DNA of 13,999 nucleotides from a virus (Duplodnaviria > Heunggongvirae > Uroviricota > Caudoviricetes). Positions within the stretch are counted from its first letter, which is position 1; each line of letters starts with the position of its first letter. Positions 2,982 to 5,051 of this stretch are shown here, one piece after another. The notes below the pieces were generated by a model. It saw nothing but the letters and a program-made list of their open reading frames with translations, was not told the DNA's origin and did no database searches. The position numbers were made by a program, and so were the translations under genes. The DNA lies in the IMG/VR virus record IMGVR_UViG_2563366967_000002, positions 1 through 13,999 of that record; one strand, written 5' to 3'.

Positions 2982-5051
2982 GTGGATATGGCAGCAGTAA
3001 AAATCTCAGGTGTGCTGAAAGATGGTGCGGGAAAACCAATACAGAACTGCACTATTCAACTGAAGGCAAAGCGTAACAGCACCACGGTTGTGGTGAACAC
3101 GGTGGCCTCAGAAAATCCGGATGAAGCCGGACGTTACAGCATGGATGTCGAGTATGGCCAGTACAGCGTTATCCTGCTGGTTGAAGGTTTTCCGCCTTCA
3201 CATGCCGGGGCCATCACCGTGTATGAGGATTCTAAGCCGGGGACATTGAATGATTTTCTGGGCGCTGCAACAGAAGATGATGTTCGTCCGGAGGCACTGT
3301 ATCGTTTTGAAAAGATGGTGGAAGAGGTGGCACGCAACGCTGAAGCCGCCTCTCAGAGCGCAGCGGCAGCAAAGAAATCAGAAACAGCAGCGGCATCGTC
3401 CAGGAATGCGGCGAAAACATCAGAGACGAATGCAGGTAACAGCGCGAAAGCGGCAGCTTCTTCAAAAACAGCCGCACAAAACGCAGCAACAGCGGCAGAA
3501 CGTTCAGAGACAAATGCCCGTGCGTCAGAAGAAGCCTCCGCAGACAGTGAAGAGGCTTCCCGCCGTAATGCAGAGTCAGCCGCTGAAAATGCCGGAGTCG
3601 CCACCACAAAAGCGCGGGAGGCCGCAGCAGACGCAACAAAGGCCGGGCAGAAAAAGGATGAGGCTCTGTCGGCAGCGACACGGGCTGAAAAGGCGGCAGA
3701 CCGCGCAGAAGTCGCAGCGGAAGTGACTGCAGAGCCCTATGCGAATATAGTGCCGCCGCTGCCTGATGTGTGGATACCGTTTAACGATTCACTGGATATG
3801 ATTGCGGGTTTTTCTCCGGGCTATAAAAAAATAGCTATTGGTGACGATGTGGTTCAGGTCGCCAGTGATAAACAGGTTAATTTCAGTCGCGCATCAACGG
3901 CAACATATATCAACAAATCTGGCGAACTGAAAACGGCGGAAATTAATGAGCCGCGATTTGAGTGTGATGGCCTGCTTATTGAGGGACAAAGAACGAACTA
4001 CATGCTCAATTCGGAAAGTCCAGCCAGCTGGGGGAAGTCATCAAACATGGATGTGCCCGAAACCGGGACAGATAGTTTTGGTTTTACTTATGGAAAGTTT
4101 GTCTGCAACGATTCTCTGGTTGGGCAAACTTCGGCTATTAATATGGCATCAATTGCTGCAACAAAGTCAGTTGATGTCTCAGGCGATAACAAGTACGTGA
4201 CAACCTCATGCCGTTTTAAAACAGAACGACAGGTAAGGTTACGTATACGGTTTGATAAGTATGATGGTAGTGCAACAACTTTTCTTGGCGATGCGTACAT
4301 TGATACGCAAACGCTTGAAATTAATATGACAGGTGGTGCTGCCGGCAGAATTACGGCACGAGTCAGGAAGGATAAGACCACAGGCTGGATTTTTGCAGAG
4401 GCAACGATTCAGGCAATTGATGGTGAGTTAAAAATAGGCTCTCAGATACAGTATTCTCCTGAGCAGGGTGGGGCAACAGTATCTGGTGACTATATTTATC
4501 TTGCCACCCCACAAGTAGAGAATGGGCCGTGTGTATCATCATTTATTATTTCAGGAGGCAGCGCAACGACAAGAGCCAGTGATTTGGTTAGTATCCCCAC
4601 CAGAAATAATCTTTATAAGTTACCATTTACTTTTTTACTTGAGATTCATAAAAACTGGGATATTGCACCAAACGCCGCACCCCGCGTGTGGGATATAGCA
4701 GCAGCCAATACCGGGCAATCAGCAATTGCAGCAATCAACAGAGGTAGTGGTAAGTTATATATGAGTCTGTCAAACCCTTCAGGCTCGTATGTTAATAGCG
4801 CAGCGACAGATGTATTTGCAGAGAAAACCACATTTGGATGTATTGCAAAAGCTGATGGTCACTTTCATGTGGTGACAAATGGTAAAGCGGTTAATGAAGT
4901 TTATTGTGAATATAATGGCGTGACCGCTGATAAAAATATCCGATTTGGAGGGCAGACGAATACTGGAGAACGACATCTGTTTGGCCATATTCGCAATTTC
5001 CGCATATGGCATAAAGAATTAAATGACAGGCAATTAAAAGAGGTCGTATGA
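2982..5051 (+). CDS. stf: Side tail fibre protein: lambda Stf-like N-terminus fused to a divergent C-terminal domain with LamG/ConA-like signature
   Basis: 689 aa. N-terminus (MAAVKISGVLKDGAGKPIQNCTIQLKAKRNSTTVVVNTVASENPDEAGRYSMDVEYGQYSV...) matches the recalled lambda Stf start, followed by an Ala/Ser/Thr-rich low-complexity shaft. From about nt 3730 the sequence becomes AT-richer and ends ...LFGHIRNFRIWHKELNDRQLKEVV, resembling the C-terminal motif of LamG/ConA-like jelly-roll lectin domains. Confidence 0.85.
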   Translation: MDMAAVKISGVLKDGAGKPIQNCTIQLKAKRNSTTVVVNTVASENPDEAGRYSMDVEYGQYSVILLVEGFPPSHAGAITVYEDSKPGTLNDFLGAATEDDVRPEALYRFEKMVEEVARNAEAASQSAAAAKKSETAAASSRNAAKTSETNAGNSAKAAASSKTAAQNAATAAERSETNARASEEASADSEEASRRNAESAAENAGVATTKAREAAADATKAGQKKDEALSAATRAEKAADRAEVAAEVTAEPYANIVPPLPDVWIPFNDSLDMIAGFSPGYKKIAIGDDVVQVASDKQVNFSRASTATYINKSGELKTAEINEPRFECDGLLIEGQRTNYMLNSESPASWGKSSNMDVPETGTDSFGFTYGKFVCNDSLVGQTSAINMASIAATKSVDVSGDNKYVTTSCRFKTERQVRLRIRFDKYDGSATTFLGDAYIDTQTLEINMTGGAAGRITARVRKDKTTGWIFAEATIQAIDGELKIGSQIQYSPEQGGATVSGDYIYLATPQVENGPCVSSFIISGGSATTRASDLVSIPTRNNLYKLPFTFLLEIHKNWDIAPNAAPRVWDIAAANTGQSAIAAINRGSGKLYMSLSNPSGSYVNSAATDVFAEKTTFGCIAKADGHFHVVTNGKAVNEVYCEYNGVTADKNIRFGGQTNTGERHLFGHIRNFRIWHKELNDRQLKEVV

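Follow-up and report, generated by a model that had tools for sequence, protein, structure and literature searches.

A phage 21-type side tail fibre with a lambda-type N-terminus and a predicted two-domain, lectin-like tip

Background

What does a lambdoid side tail fibre recognise when its tip is not that of lambda? The question is raised by stf, the side tail fibre gene in a stretch of 13,999 nucleotides from a tailed virus (Caudoviricetes; IMG/VR record IMGVR_UViG_2563366967_000002, positions 1 to 13,999), referred to here in its whole length as the window. In Ur-lambda, the collar at the gpV/gpM junction is built from 12 copies of the N-domain of Stf (P03764); a trimeric coiled coil comprises residues 102-393, and beyond it come a hinge, a distal domain resembling T4 gp37 and a tip that binds OmpC (PMC12617516). 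We report here that stf of the window, in a lambdoid Escherichia coli prophage, encodes a side tail fibre of modular build and of the phage 21 type, in which a lambda-type collar and stalk end at residue ~258 and carry a two-domain, predicted beta-sandwich head that has probably retargeted the fibre to a surface sugar.

Results

The stf open reading frame (ORF) occupies 2982-5051 of the plus strand and has 689 codons counted from GTG 2982, which is the numbering used for residues throughout. ATG 2988 is the likelier start, because GGAG sits 7 nt 5' of it and the annotation of phage 21 agrees; a T-run terminator is found just upstream. In its lambdoid late operon the gene comes next after J and lom, the position of lambda Stf-type fibre genes. 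Its product is 99.3 % identical over 689 residues to the 'side tail fiber' CPT_21_22 of phage 21 (OL657228) and 98.3 % identical to that of Perceval; twins of the same fibre occur in mEp460, ev017 and the PhiR phages, and the DNA of the region is 96-99 % identical to Perceval, 21, ev017 and other phages. One E. coli chromosome (strain 04-00955) matches the whole window at 99.1 %, and there the prophage, a lambdoid one, is located beside ompT, ybcH and nfrA.

In its N-terminal part, the protein is of the lambda type. Pfam PF08400 (phage_tail_N) matches residues 5-134 (E 3.3e-68; 228 bits, cut-off 26.6), and residues 5-97 match the Ur-lambda Stf N-domain in PDB 9e7m with 83 of 93 residues identical (E 1.1e-49). 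When Stf was compared by tblastn (E<=0.01) with the J-lom-stf-tfa region of lambda, residues 1-161 aligned at 74 % identity, residues 100-161 being homologous to the proximal coiled coil of lambda Stf; residues 137-243 gave a weak, out-of-register match between Ala-rich segments (53 %), and no alignment extended past residue ~250. At the DNA level, similarity to lambda within stf stops at nt 3340. Judged by these comparisons, homology to lambda is limited to residues 1-161, and the later stalk is lambda-like in composition only. The stalk as a whole (33 % Ala and 13 % Glu) is presumed to be a trimeric coiled coil. This fibre and that of Ur-lambda have in common the collar, ~60 residues at the start of the proximal coiled coil and the place after J and lom. 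Among relatives the stalk is itself mosaic, one of them (P0107) being only 26-33 % identical to the window over residues 181-240.

The non-lambda module begins at residue 259 (nt 3756) with the motif PLPDVWIPFNDSL, on which homologues with unrelated N-termini converge, namely the lambda type with PF08400, the P2 type with PF12571 (P0088) and another type (P0101). Base composition also changes here: the guanine-plus-cytosine (GC) fraction is 0.551 over 2982-3761 and 0.432 over 3762-5048, with a likelihood change point at nt 3780 (log-likelihood ratio 14.5, against a maximum of 7.9 among 500 shuffles), and GC at third codon positions (GC3) falls from 0.48 to 0.36 with a later change point, at codon 363. 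The Ala-rich stalk accounts for some of the GC shift, and the protein junction and the GC3 change point do not coincide; GC was therefore rejected as sole proof of foreign origin and the junction was placed by homology, base composition supporting it without defining it. The original prediction, made from the letters of the DNA alone, had described Stf as a chimera with a lambda-like shaft to about residue 250, a break near nt 3730 and an AT-richer part unrelated to lambda Stf beyond it. The chimera is borne out by the tblastn comparison, in which the tip does not align with lambda Stf; the break was placed within about 26 nt of the homology junction and the C-terminal part is indeed AT-richer, at third codon positions too. 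The lambda-like shaft stands as far as composition goes, its homology ending at residue ~161.

Beyond the junction two domains, D1 and D2, could be delimited (Table 1). D1 scores 55.7 bits (curated cut-off 36) against the NCBIfam family NF048003 GTA_spike_fiber, the 'phage head spike fiber domain', over residues 332-532 and profile positions 1-181 of 182, and it matches directly the head spike fibre Rcc01080 of the Rhodobacter capsulatus gene transfer agent (GTA) at an E-value of 1.4e-9. These sequence matches make it a member of the GTA head-spike-fibre family. PDB 6tb9, which contains Rcc01080, was considered as an experimental fold for D1 and rejected, since the chain is resolved for residues 2-10 only; the match therefore gives homology for D1 and no experimental fold. 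D2 is matched by Pfam PF13385 Laminin_G_3 over residues 563-684 (E 3.2e-5), just under the gathering score of the family, which was detected in 35 of 53 relatives (E<=0.01, best 1.9e-11), and the motif NFRIWHKELNDRQL corresponds to the C-terminal strand region of this profile match. An internal duplication relating D1 to D2 found no sequence support in an hhalign comparison of the two profiles (probability 0.1 %). The Pfam search of Stf returned no Peptidase_S74/IMC domain, the intramolecular chaperone of the T5 Ltf or K1F type, and a fibre of that kind was rejected. Tail_spike_N matched one of the 53 relatives.

The structure of residues 249-689 was modelled as a single chain with AlphaFold2, using an alignment of 53 diverse relatives as input. 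The model is all-beta, with a predicted local distance difference test score (pLDDT) of 94.2 and a predicted template modelling score (pTM) of 0.90, and the tip is predicted to consist of two beta-sandwich domains, D1 and D2, with the jelly-roll fold of concanavalin A (ConA)-like proteins. The fold matches, with their scores in brackets, are domain 4 of the arabinanase AbnA (20.1), the lectin-like subdomains of botulinum and tetanus toxins (17-19), the baseplate protein gp46 of phage Pa193 (17.5), the tailspike of cyanophage Pan3 (16), the sialic-acid-binding modules of carbohydrate-binding module family 40 (CBM40; 15), and pentraxins and laminin-G domains (12-14). Foldseek agrees, giving the baseplate proteins of Pa193 and E217 as well as CBM40 at E about 1e-6. 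The best matches are thus carbohydrate-binding modules and botulinum-toxin lectin-like domains, the counterpart in the botulinum and tetanus toxins being the lectin-like N-terminal half of the toxin binding domain. The tables of matches do not name the aligned domain; alignments of 180-192 residues are longer than D2, and we tentatively assign these to D1. CBM40, pentraxins and laminin-G domains are among the fold matches taken for D2. Identity between the tip and the ConA-like modules (AbnA domain 4, CBM40, the lectin-like toxin half, pentraxins and laminin-G) is 9-18 %, with no common ligand-binding residues established, and the relation is one of fold resemblance and not of family membership. 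A beta-helix tailspike was considered and rejected, since the model has no beta-helix and the tailspike matches align solely with their jelly-roll domains.

These results bear on a further claim of the original prediction, that the protein ends with a LamG/ConA-like motif in a jelly-roll tip. The motif does lie inside the Laminin_G_3 match that two-thirds of the relatives share, and the lectin-like fold was recovered in the confident model; the description of the tip has to be amended, as D1 (residues ~259-533), with its GTA head-spike-fibre domain, had been missed.

The tip module is not restricted to lambdoid phages. An exhaustive HMMER search for it returned 2871 clusters at 50 % identity with E<=1e-3 and 455 with E<=1e-10, and among the full-coverage matches listed it is C-terminal in proteins of 420-1481 residues. 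It is carried by 228 phage genome records, which include lambdoid phages, T1-like Drexlerviridae, Dhillonvirus, JenP1-like, T5-like and rV5-like phages, the last being myoviruses, and the Rhodobacter phage RcapMu, whose match covers query residues 16-289 only. Identity is 52 % in the T5-like IrisVonRoten and 39 % in the rV5-like myoviruses. Being joined to at least three unrelated N-termini, the PF08400 and PF12571 types among them, the module is a widely exchanged unit.

Within the module, identities calculated in blocks of 30 residues reveal two variable cores, one in each domain, which assort independently of each other and of the stalk and are separated by conserved linkers (residues 259-330, 511-570 and 661-689). 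P0095 equals the window through D1, its D2 core being 20-40 % identical, and the same range in the D2 core, with 90-100 % in most D1 blocks, is seen in P0098, P0107, P0099 and P0101. P0089 shows the reverse pattern, with the stalk and D2 of the window (D2 core 100 %) and a different D1 core (46-83 %). In Lambda_2E9 Stf both cores differ, the D1 core being 16-53 % identical to the window and the stalk 93-100 % over residues 31-270, where P0089 and Lambda_2E9 are both at least 73 % identical to the window. P0107 combines a different stalk and a different D2 with the same D1, and P0088 has a P2-type N-terminus on nearly the D1 and D2 of the window. In a blastn comparison of the window with Lambda_2E9, no match was obtained over nt 4000-4940 and both flanks were 92-93 % identical; such a gap between conserved flanks is the pattern that would be expected of homologous exchange of specificity cores.

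Two sets of relatives depart from the intact gene. In 4A7, 1W, 3W, D2 and Lambda_4C10 the match to the window stf ends at nt 4918, the Stf of the relative named D2 (P0087) having 643 residues; an orf92 homologue lies ~2.7 kb further on in 4A7, a distance suggestive of inserted or replaced DNA within the coding region of domain D2. In NZ_CP035498, which is 99 % identical and where 5988-8051 corresponds to window 2988-5051, stf is annotated in two partial or pseudogene pieces, a truncated N-terminal pseudogene and a separate 'head spike fiber domain' coding sequence. The chromosomal copy is thus broken within the stalk, and the copy in the window is intact.

The stop codon of stf is overlapped by the start of orf92, a gene for an acidic protein of 92 residues. 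An ORF of this size directly follows the module in every locus examined; orf92 homologues were detected by tblastn in 145 phage records, with an adjoining tail-fibre gene in every annotated row among the matches listed, and at three loci (IrisVonRoten gp23, tunus and CarlMeissner) the homologue is directly 3' of the module gene. The homologue in CarlMeissner, an rV5-like phage, is 41 % identical (E 7e-18). Searches assigned orf92 to no Pfam or NCBIfam family, and its PHROG has the function unknown; gp57 of RcapMu, a small protein beside the Rhodobacter homologue, was considered as a relative and rejected as unrelated. In the regions of IrisVonRoten (3409-7808) and tunus (2823-5824) a third gene follows the pair, encoding the T-shaped fibre gp24 in the former and a hypothetical protein of 245 residues in the latter. 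Given such a third gene in T5- and T1-like phages, orf92 might have the role of adaptor to a distal fibre, one that is missing from lambdoid phages.

The next gene, orf97, is annotated in phage 21 with a signal sequence and two transmembrane domains, and further homologues come from Escherichia phages of ~39 kb as well as from phages of Aeromonas and Halomonas. As these phage groups are mostly absent among the module matches, orf97 is probably a moron, an accessory cargo gene, and not a part of the fibre.

The tip of lambda Stf requires the chaperone Tfa. The window contains no lambda-type C-terminal region (orf-401 C-terminus, orf-314) with an intact tfa; only the last ~100 nt of tfa remain after the fibre cassette, at 99.0 % DNA identity to 7438-7538 of lambda sequence L002, in which tfa is 6974-7558. 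PGAP gives the corresponding place in the 99 %-identical chromosome as a 'tail fiber assembly protein, incomplete, missing N-terminus'. In this lineage, the Stf C-terminus and tfa of lambda are thus matched in position by a segment that runs from the stalk to nt ~5650. From the sequence comparison, the module, orf92 and orf97 replace the lambda Stf C-terminus and most of tfa, the scar being the right edge of the replacement.

Table 1. Coordinates of stf, its segments and adjacent genes in the window (residues counted from GTG 2982)
Feature	Position (nt)	Strand	Basis or remark
J, 3' part	25-2256	+	ORF list, profile searches
lom	2324-2923	+	Ail_Lom E 5e-127
stf (side tail fibre)	2988..5051	+	ORF list; phage 21 homology; GGAG
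Lambda-type N-terminal collar/attachment domain, residues 5-134	2994..3383	+	PF08400; PDB 9e7m
Ala-rich stalk, residues ~100-258	3279..3755	+	Composition; tblastn to lambda
Tip domain D1, residues ~259-533	3756..4580	+	Linker PLPDVWIPFNDSL, then GTA-head-spike-fibre-type beta-sandwich (predicted)
D1 variable core, residues ~331-510	3972..4511	+	30-residue block identities; blastn gap
Tip domain D2, residues ~534-689	4581..5048	+	Laminin_G_3/ConA-like jelly roll (predicted), C-terminal end ...RHLFGHIRNFRIWHKELNDRQLKEVV
D2 variable core, residues ~571-660	4692..4961	+	At least 3 alleles among E. coli prophages
orf92, 92-residue acidic protein	5048..5326	+	Start overlaps stf stop codon; conserved module partner
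orf97, small predicted membrane protein	5339..5632	+	phrog_1443
Lambda tfa 3'-end remnant	5651..5751	+	DNA identity to lambda L002

Some observations were also made on the surroundings of the fibre gene. The DNA of J is 92 % identical to lambda J until nt 1273 and 76 % over 1443-1793, its last ~460 nt have no DNA match to lambda, and phage 21 J is ~90 % identical throughout; the receptor-binding end of the central fibre (window 1273-2256) is therefore non-lambda as well. To the right, the window holds three 3'-end fragments of lambda-type tfa, at 5651-5751 (99 %), 9417-9548 (85 %) and 13530-13951 (85-92 %), the second within ORF 9324-9629 and the third within ORF 13548-13904, with a Caudo_TAP match in two ORFs. 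Minus-strand cargo genes come after each fragment, as if remnants of prophage right arms had accreted one after another at the ompT-nfrA (DLP12-type) locus. The cargo after the fibre cassette (minus strand, 5888-8100) comprises a Mn catalase (5888-6778) and two DUF892/ferritin-like proteins (6797-7303 and 7340-7846), and the matching genome additionally carries a small general stress protein in this block; phages 21 and Perceval and Lambda_2E9 have sitABCD at the position of the Mn-catalase cargo. A strongly AT-rich island at 8100-8550 (GC 0.28, with no ORF of 60 residues or more) separates the stress-protein cargo from a class I S-adenosylmethionine-dependent methyltransferase (8599-9267, minus). 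Next come an alpha/beta hydrolase (9813-11297) and an omptin/OmpT (11484-12437), then an ORF of the phage integrase family (12912-13649), all on the minus strand; in the matching chromosome the integrase-family ORF is annotated as a frameshifted pseudogene and the methyltransferase-ompT pair is duplicated just past the window.

Discussion

The observations can be brought together in one functional model, that of a lambda-type collar and stalk with lectin-like, Tfa-independent heads that bind a variable surface glycan reversibly and aid adsorption through J. We give this statement as a whole a probability of about 0.65; its architectural part, taken alone, is near-certain. By analogy with the structure of Ur-lambda, twelve chains would dock as a collar at the junction of tail tube and tip and give rise to four short, trimeric coiled-coil stalks, which should fall short of those of lambda in length, since the coiled coil has ~135 residues fewer and there is neither a hinge nor a distal rod. 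Every chain would end in its own self-folding, lectin-like head with no need of Tfa, making three heads per fibre, as suggested by the high pTM of the monomeric model and by Rcc01080, which works as a single chain. The heads may bind O-antigen, capsule or the core of lipopolysaccharide, in a reversible and multivalent manner, and so concentrate the virion at the surface before J engages its outer-membrane receptor, which would speed J-mediated adsorption. Exchange of the D1 or the D2 core would retarget the fibre.

That the tip binds a surface glycan, a change of receptor from lambda Stf that the original prediction had thought likely, is inferred by analogy, from its fold, the hypervariable cores and the company that the module keeps. 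Rcc01080, the only characterised homologue, binds capsular polysaccharide (PMC7296036, PMC10218006). It has 325 residues, with a domain homologous to D1 and no counterpart of D2, and an N-terminal Ile/Leu-Gly repeat fixes its single chain to a pentameric spike base, which belongs to the capsid and not to the tail (PMC7296036); in the window Stf the place of that (I/L)-G anchor is taken by the lambda collar domain. The module also forms the C-terminal ~430 residues (37-72 % identical) of IrisVonRoten (Bas32) gp22 and its T1-like, Dhillonvirus, JenP1-like and rV5-like equivalents. In these fibres too an orf92 homologue follows, although the N-terminal attachment region and shaft differ and, in IrisVonRoten, the further distal fibre gp24 has no equivalent gene in the window. 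The authors of the BASEL collection noted a 'galectin-like domain' at the C-terminus of IrisVonRoten gp22 as a possible extra receptor-binding domain (PMC11990801), and O-antigen is believed to be the target of the lateral fibres in these siphoviruses (PMC8594841).

Several points weigh against the model. The tip structure is a monomer prediction that includes neither a head oligomer nor the junction with the trimeric stalk, and the Laminin_G_3 score of the window Stf (24.5-25.7 bits) is below the Pfam gathering score of 27.6. No binding data for the module were found in the literature on any enterobacterial phage. Were orf92 a chaperone, as it could be, the claim of a self-folding head would be undercut. 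Finally, the same fibre is present in phage 21, an old laboratory isolate, which plates on E. coli K-12, a strain without O-antigen, so that on this host the fibre may be dispensable or may bind a target other than O-antigen.

The competitor that survives best, though we consider it unlikely, retains the same chimeric architecture and lets the tip bind an outer-membrane protein, as lambda Stf does with OmpC, the alleles tracking the variable surface loops of that protein. The closest fold matches of the tip, however, are carbohydrate-binding modules or lectin-like subdomains of toxins, the sole characterised homologue binds a capsular polysaccharide, and several alleles at 20-40 % identity in two cores fit the diversity of glycan serotypes better. 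Rather improbable is an enzymatic tip, for example a hydrolase or lyase of the GH16- or PL20-like kind, which likewise have a jelly roll, cleaving or modifying a surface polysaccharide in the manner of a tailspike. The least probable explanation, and a very doubtful one, is that adsorption does not involve the fibre, which would be a prophage relic, dispensable or in decay, like the frameshifted stf of laboratory lambda: the split annotation in NZ_CP035498, the match ending at nt 4918 in 4A7, 1W, 3W and D2 and the tfa fragments that litter the region would suit it, but the ORF of the window is intact, identities of 97-99 % extend over a great many genomes (2232 sequences fall into a single cluster at 90 %), the plaque-forming phages 21, mEp460, ev017 and Perceval carry the same fibre, and conserved linkers around variable cores indicate ongoing selection.

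A broader and decidedly tentative extension of the lectin model would treat the module with orf92 as a pan-phage, GTA-related cassette for glycan recognition. A collectin-like coiled-coil stalk would then carry three independent, Tfa-independent heads of two lectin domains each, served by a dedicated partner of 92 residues, and the two exchangeable hypervariable cores would provide combinatorial specificity, an architecture undescribed for tail fibres.

As for what was already known, both ends of the protein are named in public annotation, one as 'prophage tail fiber N-terminal domain-containing protein', the other as 'phage head spike fiber domain-containing protein'. A mosaic side tail fibre is an ordinary case of phages swapping receptor-binding modules, and phage 21, with orf92 and orf97 downstream as in the window, differs in the neighbourhood rather than in the fibre, having no lom and, downstream, sitABCD where the window has the Mn-catalase cargo. 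Our literature search found no functional or structural study of the module in enterobacterial phages and none on phage 21 Stf. Leads that were followed and rejected include DT57C LtfA/LtfB (a different module), gp28 of a Cronobacter phage (a different module with an intramolecular chaperone), Gifsy-1 Stf (lambda-like over its length) and the engineered lambda STF chimeras (Nature 2024, bioRxiv 2025; other modules). The additions made here are modest and consist of the three-segment recombination map, the partnership of orf92 with the module across sipho- and myoviruses, and the tfa scar.

Conclusions

Mosaic tail fibres are textbook knowledge and the domains of this one were already named in public annotation, so that current concepts remain unchanged. 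Host recognition nevertheless begins with the side and lateral fibres, and swaps of the Stf tip are in use to re-target lambda-based particles. Common, compact and free of a Tfa gene, the module could serve as a natural scaffold for engineering host range, with exchange points that are well delimited at PLPDVW, at the D1/D2 linker and at the C-terminal RHLFGH..WHKEL motif. It also offers a route to predict the host range of prophages from sequence, and it connects the tail fibres of enterobacterial phages with the GTA head spikes that bind capsule.

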